A stretch of DNA of 64,000 nucleotides from Candidatus Krumholzibacteriia bacterium (GCA_035649435.1 DASRJO010000105.1:3301-67300); one strand, 5' to 3'; counted from the stretch's first letter, positions 26,755-60,784 are shown. Notes: generated by a model from the sequence alone, not told the origin. Program-made: numbers and translations.

Positions 26755-26980
26755 AATGAACCCCCCGAGACGTGAGGCGATGGGTGAAATGGCATTCCCT
26801 GGCAGGGGCGAACCCTCCAACCAACCTGAACGAAGGCGGTGACGACATGACTCGGCCCGGGAATCGCCGACCAGCGGGATCGGTCTCCGGACGCTATGTC
26901 AGACTTGGCATGGTGATTCTACCAAGGCCGCTCCAGGGGGGTCAAGGAAACCGCCTGGAATTGGGTGTGGAGCCGCAGCC

Positions 26981-34368: not shown

Positions 34369-34400
34369 GATCTCTTCTTCTCCTCGTCGGCTTGCGGGAT

Positions 34401-35981
34401 TCACTTGCCAGCGTCTGATTGGGCGCGGCGGTCGTCGGTGACCATGGCGCCGATCGTGGCGTTCTTCCGCGTCAGGTATTTCTTCGCCATGGCTTGGACG
34501 TCCTCACGCGTCACTTGTTCGATGCGGCCGACCTCGTCGAAGAGCTTTTCCCAGCCGCCGCGCAGAATCTCGAACGCGGCCAGCTGGCCAGCCAGCCCCG
34601 AGTTGTCCTCGATGCCGCGGATGAACTCGGCGCGGACCTCGGTCTTGACGCGCGCCAGCTCTTCGTCGCCGATCAGCTCGTCTTGCAGGCGCTTGATCTC
34701 TTCCCAGCCAGCCTTCTCGATCGCTTCCGGTGTGTGGCCCGAGTTCGGGATGGCGAAGACGATGAACAAGCTCGGATACTTGTTGCCCGGGAACTCGGGG
34801 AAGGCGCCGGCGAACAGCGCGCTCTTTTCCTTCTTCACGCAGCGCTCGAACAAGCGCGAGGTCCGCCCTTGGCCGAGAACGCGGGCCAGCACTGCGAGCT
34901 TCGGATCGTCGTCGTCCGTCGTGCTCGGGCGATGGAACCCCATGGCGAAGATGGGCTGGGTGTCGCCCTGGAGGGTGAAGCGGCGCTCGCCGTTCTGTTC
35001 GGGCTCGACCGTGTGCACGGGCATCGGATCCGGCCGGCGCGGAATGCCGGCGAAGTAGCGTTGTGCCAGCTTTTGCACCTCGGCGGGGTCGACATCGCCG
35101 ACGAGCGCGACCACCATGTTTTGCGGCGTGTAGTACGTGTCGAAGAACCACTCGGCGGCGTCGAGGCGCAGATTGTCCAGGTCGGCGCGGTGGCCGATCC
35201 CCAGATTCTTGTACGGATGGGCCCGGTAGGCCACGCCCACCATCTCCTCGATGAACTGGCCGAACGGCTGCGAGTCGATGCGCATGTTGCGTTCCTCGAT
35301 GACGACGTCGCGTTCCTTGTAATACTCGCGGAACACCGGCTTGGTGAAGCGCGCCGCCTCGAGGTATGCCCACAGCTCCAGCTTGTTCGACGGCATGCTG
35401 TAGTAGTAGTAGGTGCCGTCAGAAGCGGTGCTGGCGTTCAACCCCACACCGCCGGCTTGATCGATGATCTGGCTGAACTCGTTGGACTCGACGTAGCTAT
35501 CGGCCTGATCCTGGAGACTCTTGATCTCCTTTTCGAGCTGCGCGATGCGCTCTGGGTTGGTGCGCTCGCCTTTGAGGCGCTCGGCGTACAACTCCATGAA
35601 CAACGCGTCGATTTTCTCGATCAGCTTCGATTCCTTGCCGAAATCCTTGGCGCCGATTTCCTCGGTGCCCTTGAAGGCCATGTGCTCGAACATGTGCGCG
35701 AGACCCGTTTGACCCATGGGCTCGTCGACGGACCCGGCATTCACGTGCGTCATGAAACTGAATACGGGAACATCGTGACGCTCGAGGACGATGAAGCGCA
35801 GTCCGTTCTCGAGTGTGAACTCGGTCACCTTCGATTTAAGGGCGCTCGGGTCCCAGTCGGCGGACGATTTGCCCGCCTGCGCTGCCGGAGCAAACGCCAG
35901 CAACACGACGAGACACACAATCAAGACGCCGCTTCGCTGTGTTCCCCAGCGCGGGGTGGCGGCGCTTCGACGATTCGACAT
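34401..35981 (-). CDS. M16 (pitrilysin/insulinase) family zinc peptidase, catalytic subunit
   Basis: The inverted zinc motif HxxEH is present in GLAHMFEHMAFKG. The start MSNRR has AGGAG upstream, and a signal sequence LIVCLVVLLAFAPAAQA follows. Confidence 0.85.
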   Translation of the reverse strand: MSNRRSAATPRWGTQRSGVLIVCLVVLLAFAPAAQAGKSSADWDPSALKSKVTEFTLENGLRFIVLERHDVPVFSFMTHVNAGSVDEPMGQTGLAHMFEHMAFKGTEEIGAKDFGKESKLIEKIDALFMELYAERLKGERTNPERIAQLEKEIKSLQDQADSYVESNEFSQIIDQAGGVGLNASTASDGTYYYYSMPSNKLELWAYLEAARFTKPVFREYYKERDVVIEERNMRIDSQPFGQFIEEMVGVAYRAHPYKNLGIGHRADLDNLRLDAAEWFFDTYYTPQNMVVALVGDVDPAEVQKLAQRYFAGIPRRPDPMPVHTVEPEQNGERRFTLQGDTQPIFAMGFHRPSTTDDDDPKLAVLARVLGQGRTSRLFERCVKKEKSALFAGAFPEFPGNKYPSLFIVFAIPNSGHTPEAIEKAGWEEIKRLQDELIGDEELARVKTEVRAEFIRGIEDNSGLAGQLAAFEILRGGWEKLFDEVGRIEQVTREDVQAMAKKYLTRKNATIGAMVTDDRRAQSDAGK

Positions 35982-36136
35982 CGGGGCTCCTTTGCGTTCT
36001 AGATCCAGCGCCTCACGAGCGCGCGTCTTCGCGGCCCCGCGGCTCGGCCGCGATGGCGCGTGCACCCTCGGTGCGTCCAGGGGCGACCATGGTAGCGCAA
36101 GTCGGCAGCGGCCGCGTGGGAGCAGCACATACGAAG

Positions 36137-46551: not shown

Positions 46552-46590
46552 AAACCGGCGGCGTCTGAGCCCACGCCGCCGCCGGTTTTT
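46552..46590 (+). terminator. Rho-independent terminator after hemerythrin gene
   Basis: A 12-bp stem pairs 46552-46563 with 46577-46588 (AAACCGGCGGCG / CGCCGCCGGTTT) around a 13-nt loop and runs into TTTTT. Confidence 0.7.
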
Positions 46591-46717
46591 GTGGCCGGTG
46601 GCCCTGGCCGGGGTGGCGACCGCCCGGCCCGTGTTTGGTACCATGGGCGGCCCGCGTCGCGGCCACCACCGGCGGGGAATGCGCCTCGTCACGAGGCATG
46701 CGAAGCGTCAGGAGTCG

Positions 46718-48205
46718 ATGCCGCTCTATTTCCACTTGTTGAACGACAAGGAAATCGACCGCCTCCAGGTGGTCCTGCGTGTCATTCGCGACAACCGTGA
46801 GGGAGTCCTGGATCGTTGGTACGAGCTGTATACCTTGCACTTCGCCAACGACCGCACGTTCTCCGAAATCGAGTTCAAGACGGTCTTCGGCCGCGACATC
46901 GACGTCGTGATCGAAACGCTCCTCGAGCACGACATCGTCGCCTTGGCGCAAGGGGTGCGGCGCATCGGGGACCAGCTCTTCGAGCGTGGCGTGCCGTTCG
47001 AGGAGATCATCGCTTCGTTGCACCTATTCGAGGAAAGCTGCGCCATTTTCTTTCGCCGCAACCTCTCGGTGCTCGCCAAGGGCCCAGACATCTTTCTCGT
47101 CTTCGACAAGTTGTCGCACGTGCGCATGATTCTGATCGCCGAGGCCTATTTCGGCAGTCACGACGTCAGGCACCAAGTGCGGACGCGAAGCCTCGAGCGC
47201 GATCTCCAGCAGCTCGATCCCGAGGCGACGCGGCGCCAGAGTTTCCATGGCCTGATCGGCGCGAGCCCGGTGATGCGCCGGGTGTACGAGCGCGTGCAAG
47301 CGGCCGCACCCGGCGGCGCCTCGATCCTGATCACGGGCGAGAGCGGCACGGGCAAGGAGGTGCTGGCGCGCGCCATTCACGAAGTCGGTTCCCCCGCGTC
47401 GGCGCCGTTCATCGCGGTGAATTGCGCCGCGTTGCCGCGCGAGCTGATCGAGAGCGAGCTGTTCGGGCATCGCAAGGGTTCCTTCAGCGGCGCCACCGGC
47501 GAATCCCTCGGACTGGTGCGCGCAGCCGAGGGCGGGACGCTGCTGCTCGACGAGATCACCGAAATGCCGCTCGAGACTCAGGCCAAGTTGCTGCGTGCCC
47601 TGCAGGAGCGCGTCGTGCGCCCAGTGGGAGCCACGGCCGAGATTCCCGTGAGCGTGCGCTTCATCGCCTCGACCAACCGGCCGATCGCCGAGGCCATCGC
47701 CGAAGGCAAGCTGCGCGAGGATCTCTATTACCGGCTCAAGGTGCACACGATCGAGCTGCCGCCTCTGCGGGAGCGCCTGGCCGATCTGTCGCTGCTGGTG
47801 GAGCACTGCATCGCGCTGTTCAACCGGCGCTATCCCCGCCTGGTGAAGGGCATCGAGGGCGAGGCGATTCAGGCGCTGCGAGGTTACAGCTGGCCCGGGA
47901 ACGTGCGCGAGCTGATGAATGCCATCGAGGTGGCGTTCGCGTACGGCCGCACCGACAGCATCCGCCTGCAGGATCTGCCGGCCGAAGTCTGCGGGCGACG
48001 GGAACCGCTTCCCGTACCCAACGGCGATGTGTTCGATGCCCTGTCGCCCATTCCGACGTTCGAAGAGTCAGAGAAGCTCCTGCTCGAACGGGCACTGGAT
48101 GCGACCAGCGGCAACAAACTGCGCGCGGCCAAGATGCTCGGCATCTCACGCAAGCAGCTCTACGCCAAGATCAAGAAGTACGCGATCGAGCTGGCCGCGG
48201 ACTGA
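46718..48205 (+). CDS. Sigma-54-dependent transcriptional activator (bEBP) with non-receiver helical sensor domain, AAA+ core and Fis-type HTH
   Basis: Walker A GESGTGKE and Walker B GGTLLLDEI are present. The sigma-54 contact loop reads ELFGHRKGSFSGA, a variant of GAFTGA. WPGNVRELMN is present, and the C-terminal HTH is NKLRAAKMLGISRKQLYAKIKKY. The N-terminal about 190 aa is all-helical and looks RsbR/non-heme-globin-like by eye (unverified). Confidence 0.9.
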   Translation: MPLYFHLLNDKEIDRLQVVLRVIRDNREGVLDRWYELYTLHFANDRTFSEIEFKTVFGRDIDVVIETLLEHDIVALAQGVRRIGDQLFERGVPFEEIIASLHLFEESCAIFFRRNLSVLAKGPDIFLVFDKLSHVRMILIAEAYFGSHDVRHQVRTRSLERDLQQLDPEATRRQSFHGLIGASPVMRRVYERVQAAAPGGASILITGESGTGKEVLARAIHEVGSPASAPFIAVNCAALPRELIESELFGHRKGSFSGATGESLGLVRAAEGGTLLLDEITEMPLETQAKLLRALQERVVRPVGATAEIPVSVRFIASTNRPIAEAIAEGKLREDLYYRLKVHTIELPPLRERLADLSLLVEHCIALFNRRYPRLVKGIEGEAIQALRGYSWPGNVRELMNAIEVAFAYGRTDSIRLQDLPAEVCGRREPLPVPNGDVFDALSPIPTFEESEKLLLERALDATSGNKLRAAKMLGISRKQLYAKIKKYAIELAAD

Positions 48206-48575: not shown

Positions 48576-49004
48576 ATGCTCACACCATTTCGAGAAGGAA
48601 CCGTCCTCGTGCTGACGGAGAGCGAACAGCTGGCGGGCATCGTCGCGCACGCCATCGAGAGCCTCGGGTCGAGCGGCCCGCGGCTCAGCACCGTGCGAAC
48701 TCTCGCGGATTGTCTCGTGGCCTTGCGGCTGTTGTCTCCCTGCATCGTCATCGTCGATGACACGGGGCTCGCGCCGGTGGCCGCGGAGGCGCTGAGCGAG
48801 ATGCACGCCGCCCGGTCTGGAACGCCGATCGTGTACCTGACGTCACAGCACACGCTGGACCTCGAGCGCGAGATTCGCCAGCGCGGCGTGTTGTTCTACG
48901 TGCAGTTGCCCGACACCGCCCAGCAGTTGGACGTCGTTCTCGGTCAACTGCTGGCCCGACTGGTGCGCGAAACTCCGGCGCGCGGCGCACCACGGGTCCA
49001 TTGA
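48576..49004 (+). CDS. Stand-alone receiver-like (pseudo-REC) protein
   Basis: It has a CheY-like beta/alpha periodicity (TVLVLTESE, CIVIVDDTG, PIVYLTSQ, VLFYVQLP). However the N-terminal acidic pair reads TE and the conserved Lys position reads L, so phosphorylation competence is doubtful. Confidence 0.5.
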   Translation: MLTPFREGTVLVLTESEQLAGIVAHAIESLGSSGPRLSTVRTLADCLVALRLLSPCIVIVDDTGLAPVAAEALSEMHAARSGTPIVYLTSQHTLDLEREIRQRGVLFYVQLPDTAQQLDVVLGQLLARLVRETPARGAPRVH

Positions 49005-49108
49005 GTGCGCGAGCCGGAAGGCTGGACACAGCCAAGGAAACATCGGTACCCTTCCCGCCACACGCGGCGAATGCGTCGGAACGGATCGCGTTGCAAGGGG
49101 GCCTCGAG

Positions 49109-50809
49109 ATGCCGAGAACCACTGCCAGCTTCGCGGCGGCCATCGCCGCACTCCTTCTCGTCAGCGGCTGCGGAGATGACGAAGTCGTGCAGGTCCAACC
49201 AGACCAGGCCATTCAAGTGGTCGTGCAAACTGCGCCCGAGTCCCTCGATACCGGCGGGCGAACGAGCATCCAAGTCATCGTGCAACGCGCTCCCACAGGT
49301 GCCGATCTTCGCTACGGCTGGCTGGCCGACGCCGGCACCTTCGCCGATGCAACGACCGACAGTACGACCTGGACCGCACCCGACAATCCCGGCGTCTATG
49401 GACTCTCGGTGATCGTGACCGATGGCGACAACGTCGCGATCGCGCAGAAGAACGTCGCGGTCGCGACCTACATGCCGGCGGACGATCCCTTCTACAAAGG
49501 AGCGACCAGCTGTTCCGTGTGCCACAACGGCGGGTCCGGCGGCACACAGTGGAGCACCTGGTCGGTGTCGGCGCACGCGAGCGCGATCGAGTCGTTGCAA
49601 GAGATCGGAATGGACAGCAATCCATCCTGCTTGAAATGCCACACCGTCGGCAGCTACGGCCTCAATGCCGACGCGGCGCTCGACAACGGTGGCTACGACG
49701 AAACCGCGGTGCCGCGCCTGGCCGGTGTGCAGTGCGAGAACTGCCACGGACCCGGCAGCCAGCATCCCAGCCCCAACTTCACGTCCGTCGACGTCACCAT
49801 GGATGCATCGCTCTGCGGGCAGTGCCACACCGATGCGCACCATCCCACCTACGACGAGTGGCAGACCTCGGCGCACGCCGCCGGCGCGACGTGGACGTCG
49901 TCGTCACCCCCGGGACTGCGCGCGAGCTGTTCCAAGTGCCACAACGGCATGGTTTCGGCGGCGTATCTCGATGATCCGCAGAATTTCGTCCCGCCGACCG
50001 TGAACCCGACGCAGCTCGTGCGTCACACCTGCGCCGTTTGCCACGATGCGCACGGCAACGACAACCCGGGGAGCTTGCGCGATGCATCCGTGACCGACGT
50101 GTGGCTGCCCAACAACGTGCTGGTCGAGGAAGCAGGCGCCGGACGACTGTGCATCTCGTGCCATAACGGCCGGCGCACGGAGACCGACGTGCTCGGGCAG
50201 ATCAACAACGGGTCGAGCAACTTCGGCCCGCATCACTCGATCCAGGGCGATGCGCTCAAGGGCGTCAACGCTTACCAGACCTTGGCCCCCGGCTTCCCGT
50301 GGTCGAGCAGCAAGCACATTCTGGTCGAAGATGCCTGTGTCGCCTGCCACACGCACCCACATGAAGGGGATCCGGAGGCCGGCATCCCGAACTTCATGGG
50401 CCACGATTTCCTCCCGACGACGGAAGCGTGCGTGCGCTGCCATGGCCCGCTCACGGATTTCGAGGACATCTTCGCCAAGGCCGACTTCGACGGCAACGGC
50501 AGCATCGAGGGCGTTCAAGTCGAGATCCGCGGCCTGCTGGATCTCCTGCAGCAGACCATCATCGACAAGAGCCGCAACGATTCGGTGAGGATGGATTTCA
50601 TCAACAACTTCATCCCGACGCTCGGCGACACCACGAAGAGCACGCGCGTGCAACGCGAGGCCGGTTACAACTGGGCCTACGTCGACTACGACGGCTCGAG
50701 CGGCGTGCACAACACCACCTACTCCGTGCAGCTCCTGCAGCAGAGCATCCTGTACCTCGAACCGTCGGCGCTGCCGCAAGCCGCCTTCGTCCTGCGGGAG
50801 GACATGTGA
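49109..50809 (+). CDS. Nine-heme c-type cytochrome lipoprotein with Ig-like N-terminal domain
   Basis: Lipobox LLVSG-C. The nine CxxCH motifs are CSVCH, CLKCH, CENCH, CGQCH, CSKCH, CAVCH, CISCH, CVACH and CVRCH. Contexts such as CENCHGPGSQH and W..SAHA are typical of multiheme c554-type families. Confidence 0.85.
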   Translation: MPRTTASFAAAIAALLLVSGCGDDEVVQVQPDQAIQVVVQTAPESLDTGGRTSIQVIVQRAPTGADLRYGWLADAGTFADATTDSTTWTAPDNPGVYGLSVIVTDGDNVAIAQKNVAVATYMPADDPFYKGATSCSVCHNGGSGGTQWSTWSVSAHASAIESLQEIGMDSNPSCLKCHTVGSYGLNADAALDNGGYDETAVPRLAGVQCENCHGPGSQHPSPNFTSVDVTMDASLCGQCHTDAHHPTYDEWQTSAHAAGATWTSSSPPGLRASCSKCHNGMVSAAYLDDPQNFVPPTVNPTQLVRHTCAVCHDAHGNDNPGSLRDASVTDVWLPNNVLVEEAGAGRLCISCHNGRRTETDVLGQINNGSSNFGPHHSIQGDALKGVNAYQTLAPGFPWSSSKHILVEDACVACHTHPHEGDPEAGIPNFMGHDFLPTTEACVRCHGPLTDFEDIFAKADFDGNGSIEGVQVEIRGLLDLLQQTIIDKSRNDSVRMDFINNFIPTLGDTTKSTRVQREAGYNWAYVDYDGSSGVHNTTYSVQLLQQSILYLEPSALPQAAFVLREDM

Positions 50810-52185
50810 CGCGTGGGTGGAGAACCCCGCGCGCGCTCGCCGCACACTGGATCACTGGCTGCGCGGCGACGGCACGCTGGGTCACCTGGGTCGCGGTCTG
50901 CATCTCGATCCCATGTTTCCCCCGGATGGCCGGCGGCCAGGAAGCGAGTGCTGTGGGCACGGGGTGGACCTCGCCCACGACTTGGTGGGTGGCGAGCCGC
51001 ACCACCGGCTACTGGTACGAGAGCATCGATCCCAGCACCGGTGTCGTGCTCGCGCGCGCCAACTTTCTGCAGAACGTCGACGCGTCCGTATCACGCCTGT
51101 GGGATGACCACCTCGACCTACGCTTCGCCGGTCGCTATGCCGATGCCGATCTCTACCCGATCCAGCCGACGAACGAGACGCGTTGGACCGTGGGCTATGC
51201 GCAGGTGCGCGCGAGCTCCTGGCAGGTGCGCGCGCGCCTCGGACGTTTGTTCGTCCAGGAAGGTCCGGCGCATCACACGCTCGACGGCGCTTGGGTCAAG
51301 CTCAATCCGGCGCGCCGCGTCGAGGTCCGAGCCTGGGGTGGGTCGCAGGCGCCGGCCGATCTCGAGTTCGACATTCGCAGCATCGAGACGAACTTGGCGT
51401 TCGGGGGCCGAGTTCTCGCCACGGTGACGCCCGCGGTGCGCCTCGGCGTCTCGGGTGCGCAATGGGAGGAAGGCGGTGAGGTTGCCGCACGACCCGTGGG
51501 GGCGGACGCCACTTGGTTCCCGCTCGCGGGACTGCGCGCGTTCGCGCGCGCGGAGTACGAGACCGATGCCGAGCGCTGGCAACGCATCGAGCTGCTCGGC
51601 GACTACAGCCCGGGGCGTGGCTCGCCGTGGCTCTTGCGCGCGCAATACCTGGACCGCACGCCGTGGATCGAGCAGACGAGCTACTTCGCGCGCTTCGCCG
51701 CCCTCGAGCGCGTTCGGCTCATGCGTGCTTCGGCGCGCTATCAGCTCGCGAACGGTCTCGGGGGCGAGATCGAGTCCTTCACCAGCGTGATCGACACGCG
51801 CACCTCTGCGCGTCTGGGTGGCGCGGTGCTCTTCCGCTACGGACGCGTCGGCTACTCGGCACTCTTCGGTGATTCGGGCGAAGAGAGCCAGTGGTTCGGG
51901 GATGTCGACGTGCCGGTGCGTCCGTGGGTACGGCTGGCCGCCGGCGCGGTCATCGCGACCTACGCGCTGTTCGAGGACGCACCAAACGACATGGAGCGCG
52001 ACCTGGTCACACTCTTCGGGCGCGCCACGCTCGACCTGATGCCCGGACTGCGCGGTGTGCTCGAAGTGCAAGGATTGAAGAACCCGGACTTCGACGAGGA
52101 CGCACGAATCCTGTTCGGTCTCGACCTGTTCGCCGGACGTGGGGCGTCGAAGTTCGGCCTGGGACGGGGAGGGTGGTTGCAGTGA
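50806..52185 (+). CDS. Predicted outer-membrane beta-barrel (porin-like component of a porin-cytochrome conduit)
   Basis: GTG 50806 overlaps the upstream stop (ATGTGA). It is 459 aa with no heme motifs. It has repeated amphipathic strands of about 10 residues with aromatic girdles (WTVGYAQVRA, VEVRAWGG, LAFGGRVLATV, LRAFARAEYE, WLLRAQYL, GAVLFRYGRVGYSALFG, ARILFGLDLFA). The topology is not computed. Confidence 0.5.
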   Translation: MTRGWRTPRALAAHWITGCAATARWVTWVAVCISIPCFPRMAGGQEASAVGTGWTSPTTWWVASRTTGYWYESIDPSTGVVLARANFLQNVDASVSRLWDDHLDLRFAGRYADADLYPIQPTNETRWTVGYAQVRASSWQVRARLGRLFVQEGPAHHTLDGAWVKLNPARRVEVRAWGGSQAPADLEFDIRSIETNLAFGGRVLATVTPAVRLGVSGAQWEEGGEVAARPVGADATWFPLAGLRAFARAEYETDAERWQRIELLGDYSPGRGSPWLLRAQYLDRTPWIEQTSYFARFAALERVRLMRASARYQLANGLGGEIESFTSVIDTRTSARLGGAVLFRYGRVGYSALFGDSGEESQWFGDVDVPVRPWVRLAAGAVIATYALFEDAPNDMERDLVTLFGRATLDLMPGLRGVLEVQGLKNPDFDEDARILFGLDLFAGRGASKFGLGRGGWLQ

Positions 52186-53072
52186 AGAGACGAACCCTCC
52201 CTCGTGTCGCCATCACAGGAGGATGCCTGGCCGGTGCCGCGATCTTGCTCGTGGTCACTTTGCAGGCGCGCGATGCGGAGCCGGCGTTGAAGCCCATGCA
52301 TGCTGTACACGCGACCAACGGACTCGAGTGCAGCGTTTGCCACGAGGCGGCGGCAACATCGCTGCGCGGGACAGATTTGCTCTTGCCGCAGAAGGAAACG
52401 TGCGCTCAGTGTCACGACGTGAACGATACGGAGCAGTGCGCGAAGTGTCACGCCCAAGCCGAGGAACCGGCTGGATACGCTCCCCGCACCGTCGTGGCGC
52501 AGAATTTCCCACACCAGCTGCACGTGGAGAGCGGGATGGAGTGCGCCACGTGTCACACTGGCGAGGGACTGACCGAGCCGGTGCTGCCGGACAAGGCCTC
52601 GTGCCGCGCTTGTCACACCACCGCCTCGCAGCAGAGCGATTGCCGTGTGTGTCACGCTGCCGCCGAGGAGCTGAGGCCTGCCAGTCACGGACCGCAATTC
52701 CTGCAGCTGCATGCGCTCCAGGCGGCATGGGATCAGTCGCGTTGTGCCAATTGCCACACCGAGACGGATTGCCAGGAATGTCACAACGGCGACAACATTC
52801 GACCACGGTCGCACCCGTTGAACTTTGCCTTCGACCACGTGCTCGCAGCGCGAGGGAAGGAAATCTCCTGCAGCACCTGTCACGAATCGGAGTTCTGTTC
52901 GGACTGTCATGCGGCGCAACGAGTTCTGCCCACCGATCACTCGCAGGCCAGCTGGCTGCTCGCAGACGGCGGTCGTCATGCGGAGGCGGGGCGGTTCGAC
53001 ATGGAAAGCTGCGCCGCGTGCCACGAATCCGGCAGCACCGCACCCACGTGCGCGCGCTGTCACGGGAGATGA
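52182..53072 (+). CDS. Dodecaheme c-type cytochrome (c3/c7-like), periplasmic or membrane-anchored
   Basis: GTG 52182 overlaps the upstream stop (GTGA). The twelve CxxCH motifs are CSVCH, CAQCH, CAKCH, CATCH, CRACH, CRVCH, CANCH, CQECH, CSTCH, CSDCH, CAACH and CARCH, all within 296 aa. There is a single N-terminal hydrophobic segment CLAGAAILLVVTL. Confidence 0.85.
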   Translation: MKRRTLPRVAITGGCLAGAAILLVVTLQARDAEPALKPMHAVHATNGLECSVCHEAAATSLRGTDLLLPQKETCAQCHDVNDTEQCAKCHAQAEEPAGYAPRTVVAQNFPHQLHVESGMECATCHTGEGLTEPVLPDKASCRACHTTASQQSDCRVCHAAAEELRPASHGPQFLQLHALQAAWDQSRCANCHTETDCQECHNGDNIRPRSHPLNFAFDHVLAARGKEISCSTCHESEFCSDCHAAQRVLPTDHSQASWLLADGGRHAEAGRFDMESCAACHESGSTAPTCARCHGR

Positions 53073-53626
53073 CGATGCGAAGCGTCCGCCGGCCGCACGC
53101 GTTCTGGGCACTGATCTTGGTGCTCGGCTGTTCCGAACCGGCACCGCTGCAGGACGATCTGCGCGCTCATCCTCCCGCCTGGACCGATGCGGGGAGCGGC
53201 GATTTTCACGGTGCGCGAGTGGCGCGCGAGGGGACGAATCTCTGCACCAGCTGCCACGGATCGGCCTTGCGCGGCGATCTCGTCGTGCCCGGCTGCTACG
53301 ATTGCCACGACGGCCCTGGCGGCCACCCGCCGTACTGGAAGGACCCGGCCGAACCATTCCATGGCACCGAGGTCGAGCACCAGGGCCCGACGGATTGCGC
53401 GACATGTCATGGAGCGACGTATCAGGGCGGCTGGAGCGGAGTGAGCTGCTACACGTGTCATGCCGGCGGGCCGAGCGGTCATCCGGACGGCTGGCTCGAC
53501 AAGCGTTTCCACACCTTCCATGGTCTCGAGGTGTCGGTGCACGGTGACGCCGATTGCCGCCGCTGCCACGGCAACGATCTCCTGGGCGGCACGAGCGGCG
53601 TCGCTTGCAGCGACTGCCATCAATAG
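53069..53626 (+). CDS. Hexaheme c-type cytochrome lipoprotein
   Basis: ATGA overlap with the upstream stop. Lipobox LILVLG-C. The six CxxCH motifs are CTSCH, CYDCH, CATCH, CYTCH, CRRCH and CSDCH. Confidence 0.8.
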   Translation: MTMRSVRRPHAFWALILVLGCSEPAPLQDDLRAHPPAWTDAGSGDFHGARVAREGTNLCTSCHGSALRGDLVVPGCYDCHDGPGGHPPYWKDPAEPFHGTEVEHQGPTDCATCHGATYQGGWSGVSCYTCHAGGPSGHPDGWLDKRFHTFHGLEVSVHGDADCRRCHGNDLLGGTSGVACSDCHQ

Positions 53627-54840: not shown

Positions 54841-55293
54841 ATGCGGGTGTCGATAACACGCCTCGGACCCCGGCCGCAAGCCAGGAGTCGGTGGGCGCTG
54901 TTCGCCTTGATCGCGGTGGCGTCATGCAGTGCCAGCACGCGGACAGAAACGACCGATTTCGACGAGACCGGCCGCAGGGCCGATGGCTACAAGGTGAGCG
55001 CGACCATCGTCAGCAAGGACAAAGCGCAGTTGGATCGTGCCCGCAGCCTTGCTCGCGCGGGTGACTATGAGGCTGCGATCGACATCGCCGAGTCGTTGCA
55101 ACGGGACTCAGGCGTCGATGCCGAGCTCAAGCCGGAGATCCTGCTCGTCTTGAGCGAGCTGTACGGTGCACCGCTCAACCCCCGGCGGGACACCGACACC
55201 GCCGACCGGTTGCTGCGCCAATTGCTGGCTGAGTATCCAGATTCGATGCAAGCGGAAACGGCGCGCCAACTCCTCGAGCGCTCCCCGCGTTGA
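54841..55293 (+). CDS. Lipoprotein with helical TPR/YbgF-like C-terminal region
   Basis: AGGAGG lies 5 nt upstream of the ATG. The lipobox is LIAVAS-C. The helical ARAGDYEAAIDIAESL...LLRQLLAEYPDS resembles a TPR-like motif. Confidence 0.45.
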   Translation: MRVSITRLGPRPQARSRWALFALIAVASCSASTRTETTDFDETGRRADGYKVSATIVSKDKAQLDRARSLARAGDYEAAIDIAESLQRDSGVDAELKPEILLVLSELYGAPLNPRRDTDTADRLLRQLLAEYPDSMQAETARQLLERSPR

Positions 55294-55355
55294 TTCTCTC
55301 GACAGCACCGCTCCCACATTGAGCTTGTTTGCTGTGCATGCGAATGGCCGGTATC

Positions 55356-55370
55356 TGGCGCGTGTCTTGC
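55356..55370 (+). promoter_or_regulatory. Sigma-54 (-24/-12) promoter, near-consensus
   Basis: TGGCGC-GTGTC-TTGC compared with the consensus TGGCAC-N5-TTGC. GG is at 55357-55358 and GC at 55369-55370. It is about 64 nt upstream of the GTG 55434 start of the GcvH-like/FeS/NrfD operon. Confidence 0.6.
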
Positions 55371-55433
55371 GATGCAACTCATTGCGGCGGTCGATGGTTC
55401 CGCCGGGGACAATCAGGCGACGAGGTGAGTCTT

Positions 55434-56102
55434 GTGACAGCGATTCTGGTCGTCTGCACCATCGCACTGTTCTTGATCGTGGATTCGGTGCGAACACGCA
55501 GACGCAGTCCGGTCGTGGCGCCTTGCGTCCCGCGGCGACTCGAAGAGCTGGGTGGCGATTTCCCCGTCCCGGCGGGGGTCTTCGTCGGCGCCGGCCACAC
55601 CTGGGCGAGCCTCGAGACCAATGGCTCGGTCCGCGTCGGCGTGGACGCCTTTGCCTCGCGTCTGCTTGGGCGGCTCGACCGTCTCGAGGCGGCCGCAGCC
55701 GGTGCCGAGCTGGCGCACGAGGATGCCGCCTTCGTGCTGCATCAAGGAACGAAGAGCGTCGCCTTCGCGTCGCCGCTCACCGGGACGGTGACGGACGTGA
55801 ACACCGCGCTATTGCACGAACCGGAACGTCTGCGCGACGCGCCCTACGACAGCGGCTGGCTGCTGCGCATCCGGCCGCACCATCTGGCGCGCGAGCTGCA
55901 TCGACTGCGCATCGGCGACGATGCACAGGGATGGCTGCAGCATGAAGCCGCACGTCTCGGCGATTTCCTCGCGCGCGCAGTCCCGAGCCGTATCGCCGGT
56001 GCGACGCTCCAAGATGGCGGGCTCGCCGTGACGGGAGTGATGGAGATGCTCGACGCCGGGGCATGGGAGCGTTTCGAATCCGAATTCCTCGCTGGCCGCT
56101 GA
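55434..56102 (+). CDS. Membrane-anchored glycine-cleavage-H-like (lipoyl/biotinyl-domain fold) protein
   Basis: GTG 55434 has GAGGTGA 5 nt upstream. An N-terminal TM AILVVCTIALFLIVDSV is followed by RTRRRS. The body aligns by eye to GcvH (GHTW..LE.NG.VRVGVD.FA..LLG, SPLTGTVTDVN, PYDSGWLLRIR). Confidence 0.6.
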   Translation: MTAILVVCTIALFLIVDSVRTRRRSPVVAPCVPRRLEELGGDFPVPAGVFVGAGHTWASLETNGSVRVGVDAFASRLLGRLDRLEAAAAGAELAHEDAAFVLHQGTKSVAFASPLTGTVTDVNTALLHEPERLRDAPYDSGWLLRIRPHHLARELHRLRIGDDAQGWLQHEAARLGDFLARAVPSRIAGATLQDGGLAVTGVMEMLDAGAWERFESEFLAGR

Positions 56103-56163
56103 AGGACCGTGCGGCGTCGAGAATGATTGGGGCGAGCGGTCGACTCGAAGGAGGAGGACGTCG

Positions 56164-56949
56164 ATGACTGCGGCGCTGCTCATCGACACCACGCGCTGCA
56201 TCGGATGCAACGCCTGTGCGGATGCCTGCAAGGAGGCCAATCACCTGCCGGGTGAAGTAGAGACGACGCTCACGGCCCGCACTTGGACGGTAGTCGAGGC
56301 GAAGGGGGACGTGTACGTCCGGCGCATGTGCATGCATTGCGAGGAGCCGACGTGCGCTTCGGTGTGTCCGGTCGGGGCGTTGCACAAGACTGCCGAAGGA
56401 CCCGTGGCCTACGAGGAGTCGCGTTGCATCGGCTGCCGCTACTGCATGGTGGCCTGCCCGTTCGGCGTCCCGAAGTACGAATGGGACAAGACGCTGCCGC
56501 GAGTACAGAAGTGCATCGGCTGCATCGGCCGCCTGCGCGCCGGCCAGAGCACGGCGTGCGCCACCGCCTGCCCGACCGGGGCGACCACATTCGGCGAGCG
56601 CGAGGAACTGCTGGCGGAAGCGCGCCGGCGGATTCGCGAATCTCCCGATTCCTATGTGCACCGCATCTACGGTGAACGCGAGGTCGGGGGCACGCACGTG
56701 CTGATGCTGGCGGCGGTTCCGTTCGAGCAGCTCGGGTTCCCGGTCGACCTGCCTGAGAGAGCGATGCCGTCTTACACCTGGGAAGCACTGTCCAAGATCC
56801 CGAACGTGGTCTCGGTGGGGGGCGTCGGCTTGCTCGGGATCTGGTGGATCATCCACCGCCGCATGCAGCTCGAGCGCTCGGAAGAAGTCGATGTCGATGC
56901 CGGGCCGCATTTGGCACAGGTCACGAGTCGAGACGGAGGCCGGTCATGA
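56164..56949 (+). CDS. Four-cluster [4Fe-4S] ferredoxin-type subunit (HybA/NrfC/PsrB-like) with C-terminal TM anchor, no Tat/Sec leader
   Basis: The Cys groups are CIGCNACADAC, CMHCEEPTCASVCP, CIGCRYCMVACP and CIGCIG...CATACP. A C-terminal TM reads VVSVGGVGLLGIWWIIH. The first cluster starts at residue 12, and no more upstream start codon is offered for this ORF in the track. Confidence 0.85.
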   Translation: MTAALLIDTTRCIGCNACADACKEANHLPGEVETTLTARTWTVVEAKGDVYVRRMCMHCEEPTCASVCPVGALHKTAEGPVAYEESRCIGCRYCMVACPFGVPKYEWDKTLPRVQKCIGCIGRLRAGQSTACATACPTGATTFGEREELLAEARRRIRESPDSYVHRIYGEREVGGTHVLMLAAVPFEQLGFPVDLPERAMPSYTWEALSKIPNVVSVGGVGLLGIWWIIHRRMQLERSEEVDVDAGPHLAQVTSRDGGRS

Positions 56950-58136
56950 AGCCAAGCATCGCGATCCCGCGCATCACGTTCTGGAGGGGCGTGTTCGGGC
57001 TCATCGTCGCAGCCGGTCTGGTGGCGACCTGGGTGCGCTTCACTCGGGGATTGGGGGCGAGCACGAATCTCTCCGACCGGTTTCCGTGGGGGCTGTGGAT
57101 TGGTTTCGACGTGCTCTGCGGCGTCGGGCTGGCGGCGGGAGGCTTCGCCATCACCGCGATGGTGCACATCTTCCACATCGAGCGCTACCAGCCGATCCTG
57201 CGGCCGACGATCTTGACCGCTTTCCTCGGCTACTTGCTCGTGATCATGGCGCTGCTCTTCGACCTCGGGCGGCCGTATCGCATCTGGCATCCGCTGGTCA
57301 TGCGCAACCCGCACTCGGTGATGTTCGAGGTCGCCTGGTGCGTGATGCTCTACACCACGGTGCTGGCGCTCGAGTTCAGCCCCATCGTGTTCGAGAAGCT
57401 GCGCCTGCAACGGCCGCGGCGCATCCTGCGCACCATTTCGGTACCGCTCGTGATCGTGGGGGTGTTGCTGTCGACGTTGCACCAATCCTCGCTCGGATCA
57501 CTGTTCCTGATCATGCCGCAGAAGCTGCACCCACTGTGGTACACGCCGATGCTGCCGGTGTTCTTCTTCATCTCCGCGCTCGGTGTCGGCTTCGCCATGG
57601 TCATCTTCGAGTCCTATCTGAGTGGGAAGGCGTTCGGCAAGCAGCTCGAGCTGCCGTTGCTCTCCCATCTGGCGAGTGTCGTCGCCGTGGTGCAGCTCGT
57701 CGCCCTCGTGTGGCGGCTGGAGGACCTGGCGTTCCGTGGCGCCTGGGAGCACCTCGGGGCCCAGACGTTGCCGGCTGCCACCTTCGCCGCCGAGATGATC
57801 GTGGGTGCCCTCGTCCCCATCGTGCTCTTCGCCGTGCCGCGCTGGCGCCAGAATCCGAATACCTTGTTCCTGGGCGCGGCCTCGGTCGTCTCGGGTTTCG
57901 TGCTCAATCGCTTGAACGTCGGCATCACCGGGCTCGAGCTGGGCACCGGCCAACGTTACTTCCCGAGCTGGATGGAAGTCGCGGTCACCATGAGCATCGT
58001 GGCGATTGGTTTCGCGCTGTTCGGTGTCGCCTGCAGGATCCTGCCGATCTTCGAATCACCCAAGGTGCAGATCCGGCGGCTGCGACGCACTCGACTCGCC
58101 CCCGCGCCGGCACCACCGGTGTCGGCGCAGGCATGA
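56946..58136 (+). CDS. NrfD/PsrC/HybB-family integral membrane quinone-interacting subunit
   Basis: ATGA overlap with the FeS gene. It is 396 aa with about 10 TM helices. FPWGLWIGFDVLCGVGLAAGGF and YRIWHPL are typical of the NrfD/HybB family. Confidence 0.85.
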   Translation: MKPSIAIPRITFWRGVFGLIVAAGLVATWVRFTRGLGASTNLSDRFPWGLWIGFDVLCGVGLAAGGFAITAMVHIFHIERYQPILRPTILTAFLGYLLVIMALLFDLGRPYRIWHPLVMRNPHSVMFEVAWCVMLYTTVLALEFSPIVFEKLRLQRPRRILRTISVPLVIVGVLLSTLHQSSLGSLFLIMPQKLHPLWYTPMLPVFFFISALGVGFAMVIFESYLSGKAFGKQLELPLLSHLASVVAVVQLVALVWRLEDLAFRGAWEHLGAQTLPAATFAAEMIVGALVPIVLFAVPRWRQNPNTLFLGAASVVSGFVLNRLNVGITGLELGTGQRYFPSWMEVAVTMSIVAIGFALFGVACRILPIFESPKVQIRRLRRTRLAPAPAPPVSAQA

Positions 58137-58193
58137 GGGGTCGAGACAGGATCGAGGGCCGGGCGAGGCGCGGCCGCGGACGGCTGAACCGGC

Positions 58194-59450
58194 TCAGGGC
58201 TCGAACTCGATGCGCTCGATCGCGGACCACTCGAAGAACTGCGGCTCGCCTCGACCGGGTGTGACGACGTAGACGCCGGCGTTGCGTTCGCTCACGTCCT
58301 GGGCATCCTCGAGCTCGAGAACGAGGCCGCCGCGCAGGACGACGCGGCTTTCGTCGTGGCGCCCGGGTTCGATCGAAGCGATGCGGGCGAACGGGATGTC
58401 GTACTCGATGTCGGCATGGGAACCGTTGAGCATTTCCCATCCGGCTTCCTCGTCGCGATCGAACACGATGTGGCCGCGATGGGTGCCGCCGTCGGTGGTG
58501 TGCACGCTGCCTTCGAGCGGCCCCAGCGGCGGGTAGGCGGTGTAGCCGCGCCCGCTGGCACCAGGCTGGCTGAAGGTCAGCTTGTCGAAGGCGCGCCAGG
58601 AAATGGTGACGCGGCCGTGGCGCTCGTCCTCGACCACGATGCCACGATTGTCGTCGTTGACGTCGTTCGAGCCTTCGAGGCGCAAGGTGCGCCCGTCGGC
58701 GAGCGTGACGTTGCATGCACGACGCGACAGGCGTTCGATGGAGCGGATCCGACCCATCGGGATCTCCACCTTGCCGTCCTCGGATTCACCGTTCAAGAGA
58801 TCGACGCTCGTGCATTCCGACTTGTCCCATTGCACCCAGCCCTCGAAGGCCCCGCTATCGGTGGTGACGGTGCCGTGCAAGCGGGTGACGCCGGGGTCGG
58901 CCCCGGTGGGCGCGGCCGCGAAGCGGATGCGCTCGATGCGGTCCCATTCGACTTCGATGCCACCGACCTCGGGATCGAGGACATGGATGGCGTCGCTCAC
59001 GTCGTTCGAGTACCCACGCACCTTCATCACCACGCCGCTCTTCAGGTGTACTTCGATATGGTCGTTGCGCAGGACTTCGATTTCCGCAATGTCGCCGAAT
59101 CGGCAGATGAAGATGCGTGCGTCGTCGTCGCCGACATGCACCTCGTGGCCGAAGAAACGATAAGGTCGCCGGCGGCGCGATTCGCGCTCGTCATCCGACC
59201 GGTTCTCGAGATAGGGCAGCTCTTCCTTGGACGAGTGGAAAAGGTCGTCCCAGAAGCTCTCTTCGTCTCCCCAGCGCAAGAAGCCATGATACTCCTTGCC
59301 GGAACGCGTGCTCACCGTGCCATACAGGAAGCCGGAGTTGTCGATGGCGTACGATTCCATCCCCGGAACCGGAACGGCCCAGGAGACGGCGGCCACGATT
59401 GCGGCAGCGAGGCAATTGAAATCTCGGGGACGCTTCCTTGGTTTCGGCAT
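58194..59450 (-). CDS. Secreted protein of unknown function built from three modules of about 125 aa
   Basis: Start MPKPRKRPRDFNCLAAAIVAAVSWAVP has AAGGAG 6 nt upstream. The threefold internal repeat is (FLYGTVSTRSGKEYHGFLRWGDEE / RLHGTVTTDSGAFEGWVQWDKSE / PLEGSVHTTDGGTHRGHIVFDRDEE), each followed by a beta-rich segment ending in ...W..I.RI.F. No family is recognised. Confidence 0.6.
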   Translation of the reverse strand: MPKPRKRPRDFNCLAAAIVAAVSWAVPVPGMESYAIDNSGFLYGTVSTRSGKEYHGFLRWGDEESFWDDLFHSSKEELPYLENRSDDERESRRRRPYRFFGHEVHVGDDDARIFICRFGDIAEIEVLRNDHIEVHLKSGVVMKVRGYSNDVSDAIHVLDPEVGGIEVEWDRIERIRFAAAPTGADPGVTRLHGTVTTDSGAFEGWVQWDKSECTSVDLLNGESEDGKVEIPMGRIRSIERLSRRACNVTLADGRTLRLEGSNDVNDDNRGIVVEDERHGRVTISWRAFDKLTFSQPGASGRGYTAYPPLGPLEGSVHTTDGGTHRGHIVFDRDEEAGWEMLNGSHADIEYDIPFARIASIEPGRHDESRVVLRGGLVLELEDAQDVSERNAGVYVVTPGRGEPQFFEWSAIERIEFEP

Positions 59451-59563
59451 GTTCGACTCCTTCGGGGCGGTTCGATCACTCTGTGACTGCATACGTTTTT
59501 CGATTCCCGTTCCGAGCCAGATTCGCGCGCGAGGAACCACGACGTCGCGGTCGAGGTTCAGGC

Positions 59564-60133
59564 TCAGCGCGGCAGTTCCGCTGCCTGCGAATCGGACGAG
59601 GTGAAGTCGATGGCGCTTGGGACGTCCTCGCTGCCGGCGCGCGAATTCTCGGACTCGCTGTCCGCGTCGAGCGAACCTTCCTCCTCCCATCCAGCTTCCA
59701 CGCGCAGTGCCTCGCGCAGCGCACTGCGATAGCGCGGGTCGGCTTGGAGGACCTCGGTCGCGATGGAAGCGAAGCGCTCGTCGGTCATCGCAGTGGGCCA
59801 AGCTCGTGGGTAGTCCGTGGAGCGCAGCCAGGCACTGCCGGCCCACAATCCGAGCGCCAGCACGATGCCGGCTGCGAGCGCCCACCGCCAGGCCCCGGGC
59901 TTGGCGTGTCCGAGGACTTCGAACGCCGGGGAATCGTCTTGGAGCGGAGCATCGGGCACCGATGCCGCACTCCACCCGCTCACCGCGTTTTCCAAGAGAG
60001 CGCACTGCCGTACGAAGTCCGCGCACGCAGCGCAATCCAGCAGGTGGGAAAGTGCCGGGGCGATGTCGGCACGTGGAGCCTCAGCATCCAGGAGCGCCGA
60101 GAGCGTCATTTCGAAGCTCGAGCACGAGTTCAT
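59564..60133 (-). CDS. Anti-sigma factor-like protein (zf-HC2-like, single TM), module 3
   Basis: SHLLDCAACADFVRQC is present. The TM is WRWALAAGIVLALGLWAGSAW. It starts 16 nt after the sigma stop. Confidence 0.55.
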   Translation of the reverse strand: MNSCSSFEMTLSALLDAEAPRADIAPALSHLLDCAACADFVRQCALLENAVSGWSAASVPDAPLQDDSPAFEVLGHAKPGAWRWALAAGIVLALGLWAGSAWLRSTDYPRAWPTAMTDERFASIATEVLQADPRYRSALREALRVEAGWEEEGSLDADSESENSRAGSEDVPSAIDFTSSDSQAAELPR

Positions 60134-60149
60134 CTTGTCTCCTTCGGCG

Positions 60150-60704
60150 TCAGCACGTTTCGTCGGTGCGATGCGACCGGCGCGTGCCGCTCAGGAACTC
60201 TCGCAGCCCATGCGCCAATGTCTTGCGCGCCCGGTACACATCGACCTTCACTTTCGCCACGCTCCAATCACGAGCGCGAGCGATCTCGGCATAGGCGAGG
60301 CGCTGCAACACGCCGAGCTCGAAGGCGAGGCGCTGATCGGGCGGCAGCGCCAGCAAGAGATTCTGCAGGTGTTCTTGCAACTGGCTGTGCTCCGCATCGC
60401 TTTGCGGCGAGTCGGCGCGCTGTCGCGGATCCAATCCGCCATCGAGCACCTCCAGTTGCAGCATGCTGCGGCGATCGCGAAAGTGATTGGCGAGCAGATT
60501 GCGCGCGGTCTGGAACACGTATGCGCGCGCTTTGTCGGGCTCGCGGAGATCGGGCGCATGCTCGACGAAACGTGTCAGTGTTTCCTGACACAGGTCCTCG
60601 GCCGTGTCGGCGTCGCGCAACCGCCGGCGCAACCACGCCAACAACTCGGGACGCAGGCGCTCGAGCCAGAGGGTCGCGGTGCTCGGATCGTGCTCCTTGC
60701 CCAT
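60150..60704 (-). CDS. ECF-type RNA polymerase sigma factor (module 3)
   Basis: It starts at MGKEHDPS. Region 2 reads AEDLCQETLTRFVEH and YVFQTARNLLANHFRDRR. Region 4 reads QRLAFELGVLQRLAYAEIARARDWSVAKVKVDVYRARKTL. Confidence 0.8.
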   Translation of the reverse strand: MGKEHDPSTATLWLERLRPELLAWLRRRLRDADTAEDLCQETLTRFVEHAPDLREPDKARAYVFQTARNLLANHFRDRRSMLQLEVLDGGLDPRQRADSPQSDAEHSQLQEHLQNLLLALPPDQRLAFELGVLQRLAYAEIARARDWSVAKVKVDVYRARKTLAHGLREFLSGTRRSHRTDETC

Positions 60705-60759
60705 GGCCTCCGGATCCGTCCCGGAGCGTCCCCGCTCCGGTTCTGAAGACACGCCAGAA

Positions 60760-60784
60760 GACGAGAGGTTACATTTCAAATTCC
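60760..60784 (-). promoter_or_regulatory. Candidate autoregulatory ECF-type promoter (GGAAT-N16-CGTC)
   Basis: The minus strand reads GGAATTTGAAATGTAACCTCTCGTCTT. The -35 GGAAT is at 60784-60780 and the -10 CGTC at 60763-60760. It is about 55 nt upstream of the sigma start. Confidence 0.45.

Follow-up and report, generated by a model that had tools for sequence, protein, structure and literature searches.

Few quinone-linked modules of anaerobic respiration are as widespread as the dimers of an NrfD-type membrane subunit and an iron-sulfur (FeS) protein, whose FeS subunit is assumed either to be exported by twin-arginine translocation (Tat) or to be carried by a Tat-bearing partner. We describe here a three-gene operon of this kind in a 64,000-nucleotide stretch of DNA from Candidatus Krumholzibacteriia bacterium (GCA_035649435.1 DASRJO010000105.1:3301-67300; the window, with positions counted from its first letter). 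Its plus-strand genes encode, in order, a membrane-anchored protein with the fold of the glycine cleavage H protein (GcvH), a four-cluster ferredoxin without an export signal and a ten-helix NrfD subunit (genes 1 to 3; Table 1). The reading favoured here, with a probability of roughly 60%, is a sigma-54-controlled, quinone-linked FeS/NrfD module in which the ferredoxin would face the periplasm and the GcvH-fold protein would be a non-lipoylated adaptor in the cytoplasm.

The FeS/NrfD dimer is itself a well-known module (PMC6303296, PMC8076601), and its described representatives include HybA/HybB of Escherichia coli hydrogenase-2 and HmcB/HmcC of Desulfovibrio. These share with genes 2 and 3 the order of the gene pair, the 16-cysteine ferredoxin with its C-terminal tail and the ten-helix NrfD subunit. 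They differ in two respects: the ferredoxin in the window has no Tat leader, and the window pair is tied to GcvH-like proteins and to a sigma-54 two-component system. The catalytic and accessory partners of the known systems are also missing from the vicinity: a scan limited to the neighbours of the pair found none of HmcA/D/E/F or HybO/HybC next to it, either at the operon or in 160 related loci. What adjoins the pair is the GcvH-like gene upstream and an unrelated minus-strand gene downstream.

Two sets of loci were used for comparison. The first was gathered with the GcvH-like alignment as query from a collection with one genome per species; of more than 514 related loci (tblastn-confirmed), 80 were fetched, from at least a dozen phyla or classes (among them Acidobacteriota, Ignavibacteriota, Bacteroidota, Deferrimicrobiaceae and other Desulfobacterota, Acidimicrobiia, Gemmatimonadota, Eisenbacteria, Krumholzibacteriia, Binatia and Calditrichia). 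The second was drawn from metagenome contigs with the FeS protein as an independent seed, and its denominators are the loci with enough flanking sequence. The two closest relatives of the window, loci L003 and L001, are 87-90% and about 77% identical to it in nucleotide sequence.

The missing leader of gene 2 is the most distinctive feature of the operon. The ATG at 56164 is the earliest possible start past an in-frame stop, with GGAGGAGGA upstream, and the 61-nucleotide (nt) gap that separates it from gene 1 holds no in-frame start from which a Tat leader could be read. All 16 cysteines (C12/15/18/22, C56/59/64/68, C88/91/94/98 and C117/120/132/136) are unvarying in 13 orthologues. The protein matches Pfam Fer4_11 (1.9e-20) and the NCBIfam profiles HmcB (2.7e-74, 250 bits, cut-off 420) and HybA (2.2e-64, 217.6 bits, cut-off 263), and it is 38% identical to E. 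coli HybA from HybA residue 37. Because the alignments begin at HmcB profile position 37 and HybA profile position 40 (residue 37 in the pairwise comparison) and run on from there, gene 2 lacks the leader and nothing else. Near its other end the anchor is followed by HRR and a charged 31-residue tail, W228 and R232 being unvarying; the ratio of nonsynonymous to synonymous substitution rates (dN/dS) is 0.13-0.14.

The same absence runs through a whole subfamily. Among 75 FeS genes of the first locus set, 39 carry an RRxFLK leader (type B) and 36, including that of the window, start about 10 residues before the first cysteine (type A). In an independent set of 80 type A genes, 49 have too little space for 25 residues ahead of the first cysteine, 29 have more room and no Tat-like motif, and two lie at contig ends, so that a Tat-like N-terminus occurs in 0/78 of these independently seeded orthologues. 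Judged from this distribution, loss of the signal is a trait that defines a clade and not an annotation artefact. A first-pass annotation of the window had seen that the FeS subunit leaves no space for a Tat leader, with its first cysteine at residue 12, had noted the C-terminal membrane anchor (now placed at residues 212-230) and had named an upstream start codon as what might supply a leader after all; the anchor and the missing leader both hold, and no such start exists in frame.

Gene 3 matches Pfam NrfD (PF03916; 4.5e-24, 86.1 bits against a cut-off of 25.8), in agreement with its earlier assignment as an NrfD/HybB-type quinone-interacting subunit, and over its full length it matches the NCBIfam profiles HmcC (1e-103, 347.6 bits, cut-off 550) and HybB (6.5e-91, 305.6 bits, cut-off 450). 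It contains ten hydrophobic segments and is 33% identical to E. coli HybB over the full length; a PDB sequence search with it returned nothing at E<=0.01. By pairwise alignment with HybB, for which a list of quinone-site residues and proton-path residues tested by mutagenesis are available (PMC8076601), gene 3 keeps five of six quinone-site positions (D58, D109, S129, E133 and S190) and R89, Y99, E148 and H184 of the proton path (the N-side channel). Its N-terminus has no twin arginine that could serve as a Tat signal and carries a conserved K/R-x-TFW-K/R motif. All the NCBIfam scores of genes 2 and 3 lie under the equivalog cut-offs, and by this measure their families are therefore distinct subfamilies. 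All three operon genes are under purifying selection (dN/dS 0.13-0.29).

Which side of the membrane the ferredoxin occupies can be approached through the charges of the two membrane proteins. In type A NrfD subunits the even loops hold a mean of 16.4 lysines and arginines and the odd loops 6.0, with the same direction in 30/30 sequences; in the Tat-linked type B subunits the means are 19.4 and 4.4 (37/37). The predicted outer loops, which include GLGAxTNLxDxxPWG, are more conserved than the inner ones in both types (0.73 vs 0.54 in type A, 0.70 vs 0.57 in type B). The C-terminal tail of type A ferredoxins carries more lysine and arginine after the helix than before it in 47/55 sequences (3.09 vs 1.36), a bias shared by type B (2.81 vs 0.35), and past the helix it extends for about 24 residues with about 11 charges. 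These values do not support an inverted NrfD; its orientation is predicted to be that of the Tat-dependent sister family. An inverted NrfD is expected for SoeC, the single cytoplasm-facing case discussed (PMC8076601). The SoeABC sulfite dehydrogenase resembles the window pair in having an FeS subunit without an export signal on an NrfD-family anchor; it differs in that SoeC, with eight helices, is expected to lie inverted in the membrane (PMC8076601), whereas the window NrfD has ten helices, the Tat-linked orientation and no molybdopterin subunit.

In known NrfD-type structures the quinone site adjoins the FeS subunit (PMC6303296, PMC8076601). Because of the charge bias of NrfD, its conserved outer loops, the quinone-site residues and the charges of the C-tail, the ferredoxin is placed on the outer face: it is probably periplasmic and would be exported by an unseen partner or route, and a cytoplasmic position, which the first-pass annotation had proposed, is doubtful on the same evidence. 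Since the subfamily has neither a Tat leader nor a Tat-bearing neighbour, export would have to proceed by hitchhiking on an unlinked partner or by some other route.

Gene 1 is the least conventional member of the trio. Its GTG start at 55434 is supported by about 25 homologues of 219-223 residues that share the MTAILV... N-terminus. A longer open reading frame (ORF) from a TTG start (MLCMRM...RWFRRG...) was considered as the source of a hidden Tat signal and rejected: homologues start at MTAILV, and the region contains the promoter. Pfam GCV_H (PF01597), the family suggested at the outset, matches residues 55-164 (E=2e-16, 60.4 bits against a cut-off of 22.2); the score against the gcvH equivalog, 53.3 bits, falls below its cut-off of 115.85. 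An AlphaFold model (predicted local distance difference test score, pLDDT, 79.9) consists of an N-terminal helix, a barrel-sandwich core and C-terminal helices, those of the extension spanning residues 161-182, 185-193 and 208-219. The core superposes on solved H-proteins (target-normalised TM-score, TMt, about 0.91; root-mean-square deviation 1.4-1.8 Å; E=4e-11 by Foldseek), and the C-terminal extension has no counterpart in the PDB, where all matches at E <= 0.001 are H-proteins of 112-136 residues, roughly the length of the core. The glycine cleavage H protein, GcvH-L and LbpA of the sHdr system are thus alike to gene 1 in the barrel-sandwich fold and in the motifs HxW, VGxxD, PxxG and GW, which gene 1 possesses. 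They differ from it in that gene 1 has a membrane anchor, a 60-residue C-terminal extension and no lysine at the lipoyl position; unlike the H protein, its family is also not found beside gcvT or gcvP. The anchored family is large (1187 representatives at 50% identity, E<=1e-30), and the gene is under purifying selection (dN/dS 0.26-0.29).

The lipoyl position deserves particular attention. In the alignment to E. coli GcvH, Lys107 (GTKS; 55752-55754) falls one residue past the lipoyl-lysine, as an earlier alignment by eye had it, and threonine occupies the canonical position. Across an alignment of 164 GcvH-like domains from these clusters with E. coli GcvH, the canonical column holds lysine in 6/165 sequences, and the next column holds arginine (52) or lysine (50). 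Arginine is not lipoylatable. Because lysine alternates with arginine, lipoylation cannot be the function of the family, which works independently of lipoate; its members are predicted to be non-lipoylated. The suggestion that gene 1 encodes an electron or thiol carrier does not fit these columns.

The location of the GcvH-like domain follows from its anchor. No basic residue precedes the N-terminal helix and RTRRRS (residues 20-25) follows it, and the same type of anchor precedes receiver (REC) domains in paralogues. Because those domains are necessarily cytoplasmic and the basic cluster lies only behind the helix, the topology places the GcvH-like domain firmly on the cytoplasmic side, as a predicted membrane-tethered scaffold; on this point the first-pass annotation was right. 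In Deferrimicrobiaceae the anchored GcvH-like gene lies directly 5' of Tat-bearing FeS genes. The idea that the anchor substitutes in trans for an export signal was discarded, given that it is oriented with its N-terminus outside and that the gene also precedes these Tat-bearing ferredoxins. Because GcvH-like proteins are recurrently paired with REC domains and with the two-component system, we infer that the GcvH-fold protein is an adaptor or regulatory partner in a signalling branch and not an electron or thiol carrier.

Paralogues of gene 1 take several further forms. Response regulators with a GcvH-fold output domain occur at L016:8635-10642, and similar ones in L015, L020, L053, L055, L062, L069, L077, L078 and L081; two versions stand side by side after a kinase, a soluble REC-GcvH protein of about 268 residues and a membrane-anchored one of about 386 residues (transmembrane helix-REC-GcvH). 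Other paralogues (L003:12755-13609, L005:9133-9843, L004:9120-10001) have a cysteine-rich N-terminal region with the motif C-x12-C-x5-C-x2-C or CPFLETKTVTFC..., possibly a metal- or cluster-binding module. A single protein of 1391 residues, P0051 (L164:3234-7409), combines three non-lipoylated GcvH-like domains with a GlcD-like flavin adenine dinucleotide (FAD) domain, a 4Fe-4S dicluster domain and two CCG (HdrD-like) domains; on the contig, which was followed, its gene adjoins a PAS/GAF kinase, an OmpR-type regulator and a UbiA gene, and not an NrfD module.

With both the ferredoxin and the GcvH-like protein described, the model of the first-pass annotation can be weighed. It holds that the ferredoxin has no signal because it is cytoplasmic, and that it works with the GcvH-like protein to connect an electron or thiol donor in the cytoplasm to quinones through NrfD. 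Much is consistent with it: a Tat leader is present in none of 78 plus 36 orthologues, many of which have no room for one; no Tat partner is encoded within the cluster; the GcvH-like domain is itself cytoplasmic; in one protein, P0051, three related non-lipoylated GcvH-like repeats are fused to a cytoplasmic FAD/FeS/CCG oxidoreductase; and SoeABC has been hypothesised as a cytoplasm-facing NrfD system (PMC8076601). However, NrfD is not inverted here, contrary to what is expected of SoeC (PMC8076601), and the conserved surface and the quinone site lie on the outer face, too distant for electron transfer from a cytoplasmic cluster unless the membrane contained cofactors. The lysine and arginine of the C-tail and its roughly 24 highly charged residues are unlikely to be translocated, the alternation of lysine with arginine rules out a lipoyl arm, and other lineages have the same GcvH-like gene alongside Tat-exported ferredoxins. 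The model is accordingly regarded as unlikely.

The periplasmic reading also has to accommodate the regulation of the operon. Upstream of gene 1, TGGCGCGTGTCTTGC at 55356-55370 on the plus strand is an exact match to the pattern TGGCGC-N5-TTGC, with canonically spaced GG and GC elements. By itself the motif is about as frequent as chance predicts, with 1 match where 0.86 would be expected in the window, and a relaxed form has 21 matches there. The support for it is comparative. In a three-way alignment of the window, L003 and L001, the elements CTGGC and CTTGCG are unvarying and the spacer and flanks differ; GAGGTGAGTC, at the gene 1 ribosome-binding site, is likewise unvarying. Among 100 anchored GcvH-like genes with sufficient upstream sequence, 21 have a GG-N10-GC motif (at most 2 mismatches, within 220 nt) where about 2 are expected (binomial P ~8e-16), and the positions cluster 60-98 nt before the gene with a median of 77, the window value being 78. 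Seventeen homologous genes beyond the window, L003 and L001 have the motif 45-98 nt upstream, and perfect sigma-54 consensus sites precede other GcvH-like genes in the same clusters. No sigma-70-like site was found in 55200-58400.

The relatives' clusters encode an NtrC-type sigma-54 response regulator, and the presence of this kinase/regulator pair in the cluster explains why a sigma-54 promoter should be conserved. The operon would therefore be sigma-54-dependent, its regulation in the window being inferred from the relatives: the cognate regulator is deleted here, and the single sigma-54 activator in the window (46589-48205) is at most a candidate substitute. The layout read at first pass, a sigma-54 promoter followed by three genes of which the last two overlap, stands: the ATG of gene 3 (56946) overlaps the TGA of gene 2 as ATGA, and both the enrichment of the motif and the activator of the relatives speak for the promoter. 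Nucleotide homology to L003 breaks just upstream of it at an indel (window 55304-55355, 51 nt, vs L003:9705-9922, 217 nt) and resumes at 55355, one base 5' of the -24 element. In many Acidobacteriota (L034, L040, L045, L050, L064, L066, L070, L072, L080) the anchored GcvH-like gene is divergent from a FeS-NrfD-kinase-regulator-M54 operon and is preceded, at a distance of 68-79 nt, by a sigma-54-like motif of its own; genes resembling cysE and cysK lie downstream in some of these loci.

Across phyla the trio belongs to a larger cluster, whose typical order is a cysteine-rich GcvH-like gene, the anchored GcvH-like gene, FeS, NrfD, a further GcvH-like gene, the kinase, the sigma-54 regulator and an M54 peptidase. 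Of the 83 GcvH-seeded loci, 63 contain the FeS/NrfD pair and 67 a HAMP histidine kinase. Seeding on the FeS protein gives the reciprocal picture: NrfD lies beside it in 46/46 loci with room, the histidine kinase in 28/31, the sigma-54 regulator in 23/26 and the M54 peptidase in 21/26, and a GcvH-like gene is found within 1.5 kb in 32/50. The first-pass annotation had asked whether the trio keeps conserved synteny in other genomes; the association holds from both directions. The cluster kinase has a periplasmic sensor that belongs by its Pfam match to the Mcp40H-20 type (Mcp40H-20_sensor), and 50/51 module-adjacent kinases (e.g. L070:5786-7456, L003:13758-15509) have a CxxCH motif and a second Cx3-4CH about 43 residues on, which suggests one or two covalently bound haems. 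Periplasmic haem-c sensors of this type are described from Geobacter (GSU0582/GSU0935 type), and the kinase of the full cluster bears this sensor with its CxxCH. The cluster version differs in sitting on a HAMP histidine kinase with an NtrC-type regulator as partner, encoded after the FeS/NrfD pair; it is absent from the window.

This arrangement invites a second alternative, in which FeS/NrfD would be not a respiratory enzyme but a wire through which the quinone pool comes to equilibrium with the periplasmic haem c of the kinase, so that the two-component system reports the redox state of the quinones to sigma-54 promoters. The order FeS-NrfD-kinase-regulator is nearly invariant in signal-less loci and tightly packed, often with overlaps or gaps of 4-11 nt; most such loci have no catalytic subunit or cytochrome; the kinase has its haem motif in the periplasmic domain; and receiver-GcvH fusions connect the GcvH-like proteins to the same signalling system. 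Yet the window trio persists under purifying selection without an adjoining kinase, a regulator co-transcribed with its target operon is common and requires no physical coupling, the coupling of kinase and module is purely putative, and export of the ferredoxin is the same problem as in the favoured reading. Such a wire is judged quite unlikely for the trio.

The remaining question of export has a partial precedent in Gallego-Parrilla et al. 2024 (PMC10924467). The Tat-plus-cytochrome module of that study corresponds to the type B pairs that lie beside signal-less pairs in Ignavibacteria and Bacteroidota, and its third class is similar to the window pair in having a signal-less ferredoxin with a C-terminal tail and a HybB-like partner. 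That class differs in sitting right after a Tat-lipoprotein FeFe hydrogenase, a potential carrier, whereas the type A subfamily is without a Tat-bearing neighbour. The search for tail-anchored Tat substrates in the study required a Tat signal and was thereby blind to signal-less members (PMC10924467). That the pair is simply the membrane anchor of an unlinked Tat-exported enzyme, such as a hydrogenase, that carries the ferredoxin, with the GcvH-like gene as an unrelated neighbour, has in its favour the proposed co-export of signal-less C-tailed FeS proteins encoded beside HybB-like genes with the FeFe hydrogenase (PMC10924467) and the export of FdnH by such co-transport, but it is very improbable, as the Tat partner of the precedent is encoded immediately upstream and none is in any of more than 100 loci here, and as the GcvH-like linkage recurs across phyla with a promoter common to it.

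In the favoured reading the operon encodes a dimeric redox module of the HybA/HybB (HmcB/HmcC) type. The ten-helix NrfD is predicted to bind quinone close to the outer face and to have a proton path that leads in from the cytoplasm. Its partner is the tail-anchored ferredoxin with four [4Fe-4S] clusters, which, like the Tat-dependent sister family, most likely lies on the periplasmic face. In that position it would pass electrons between quinones and carriers in the periplasm; for this lineage the probable carriers are the multihaem cytochromes encoded 2 kb upstream. The GcvH-fold protein would act as an adaptor or regulatory partner of the signalling branch, to which the full cluster elsewhere adds the kinase with its periplasmic haem-c domain, the NtrC-type sigma-54 regulator and the M54 peptidase.

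Several points weigh against this account. An export signal is missing from all three proteins, and when every ORF of the signal-less loci was scanned, no conserved Tat-bearing neighbour emerged, only separate Tat-bearing ferredoxins of adjoining modules and false positives; Tat signals called in the cluster kinase were all false positives, at the second helix. To our knowledge Tat is the only route for folded FeS proteins, and a periplasmic location needs an unseen partner. The predicted topology rests on the positive-inside rule and on conservation. About one third of signal-less loci have no GcvH-like gene nearby, and its role may be dispensable; the window has no cognate kinase and regulator; and the cytochrome linkage is confined to close relatives, which leaves the electron partner of the module putative. 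A bolder combination, in which the signal-less ferredoxin reaches the periplasm with no Tat partner at all (a new export route for folded FeS proteins), and/or the FeS/NrfD pair is a wire to the kinase haem c with GcvH-fold proteins as output adaptors, has the odds clearly against it.

Table 1. Features of the operon and of its regulatory surroundings in the window
Feature	Position	Strand	Basis or description
Sigma-54-type promoter	55356..55371	+	-24 TGGCGC, 5-nt spacer, -12 TTGCG; 5' end 78 nt before gene 1 start
Gene 1 ribosome-binding site GAGGTGAG	55422..55429	+	Read from sequence
Gene 1, 222-residue GcvH-fold protein with N-terminal membrane helix (predicted N-terminus outside, rest inside)	55434..56102	+	Pfam GCV_H, homologues, model
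Gene 1 N-terminal transmembrane helix, residues 2-16	55437..55481	+	Hydropathy; model helix residues 2-23
Gene 1 GcvH-fold domain, residues 55-164	55596..55925	+	HMMER alignment to E. coli GcvH
Gene 1 C-terminal helical extension, residues 161-222, family-specific	55914..56099	+	Conserved columns; ends W-x-RFE-x-EFLA
Gene 2, 261-residue HybA/HmcB-type tetra-[4Fe-4S] ferredoxin without signal peptide (type A)	56164..56949	+	Pfam, NCBIfam
Gene 2 C-terminal transmembrane tail anchor, residues 212-230	56797..56853	+	Hydropathy, charge statistics
Gene 3, 396-residue ten-helix NrfD-family quinone-interacting subunit, HybB/HmcC type	56946..58136	+	Pfam, NCBIfam
Operon end and deletion junction	58137..58193		L003 homology ends at 58154 (blastn, tblastn vs L003, L001)
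Sigma-54 enhancer-binding protein, only one in window	46589..48205	+	AAA+ sigma-54 domain, HTH_8, no REC (Pfam)

Comparison with the two close relatives indicates what has happened downstream of the operon. In both, NrfD is followed by a block (L003:12733-17427, L001:9311-14095, corresponding to window 58137-60376) with a cysteine-rich GcvH-like gene, the haem-c kinase, the sigma-54 regulator and the M54 peptidase, and this block is absent from the window. On that comparison the window carries a shortened version of a widespread cluster, from which the kinase/activator block has been lost. The sigma-54 enhancer-binding protein upstream of the operon is 39% identical to the L003 regulator over its AAA+ and helix-turn-helix (HTH) parts only and has a 220-residue uncharacterised N-terminal region; it is possibly the activator of the operon in place of the missing cognate regulator. 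Directly 3' of the operon lies a minus-strand ORF of 613 residues whose homologue is found further downstream in L001. Within 58194-60779 the minus strand encodes a sigma factor of the extracytoplasmic function type (60150-60779), a probable anti-sigma ORF (59564-60133) and a repeat-containing ORF of 478-613 residues without a Pfam match.

About 2 kb upstream of the operon, 49001-53626 holds multihaem and MtrC-like genes. The region resembles a porin-cytochrome cluster, with a 602-residue multihaem protein containing MtrC/MtrF domain II/IV, an ORF of 585 residues without a Pfam match that is possibly an outer-membrane barrel and two more multihaem proteins; an Na/Ca exchanger gene (minus strand) and a TPR gene follow it. 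The cytochrome cluster is conserved next to the operon in L001 and L003 only. Other type A pairs have no cytochrome neighbour, and those of Ignavibacteria and Bacteroidota stand back-to-back with a separate type B pair that has a multihaem cytochrome. The link between the module and the neighbouring cytochrome conduit drawn at first pass loses its generality, since the neighbours that recur across phyla are the kinase, the sigma-54 activator and the M54 peptidase; it is plausible that the trio acts as quinol dehydrogenase for the conduit in this lineage only.

Elsewhere in the window, the minus strand (23554-26820 and 14585-23215) encodes an ORF of 1088 residues that ends in FlgD_ig / Por_Secre_tail (a type IX sorting domain) and a neighbouring ORF of 2876 residues; the Por_Secre_tail domain suggests an organism of the FCB-group type. 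Two adjoining M16-family peptidase genes occupy 32236-36128 on the same strand. The first has a Tat-like N-terminus, MNTRRFFLAALTG..., the only convincing leader of this kind in the window; it has no relation to the FeS module.

Within the library searched, no publication names NrfD together with GcvH or connects archaemetzincin with either NrfD or HybB, and nothing found on glycine cleavage H in combination with a receiver domain and sigma-54 describes the cluster, which is apparently undescribed. Its interest lies in a contradiction carried by the whole subfamily: the topology signals an outside location for the ferredoxin, yet neither a signal nor a carrier is encoded. Resolving this would reveal a new export or hitchhiking arrangement, or would overturn the assumed docking geometry. 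The cluster also brings a haem-c sensor kinase and a sigma-54 regulator together with a redox module, and in it the H-protein fold would gain a role free of lipoate, including that of an output domain in response regulators. If the module does prove to be a wire to the sensor, it would represent a new kind of redox-sensing two-component system.

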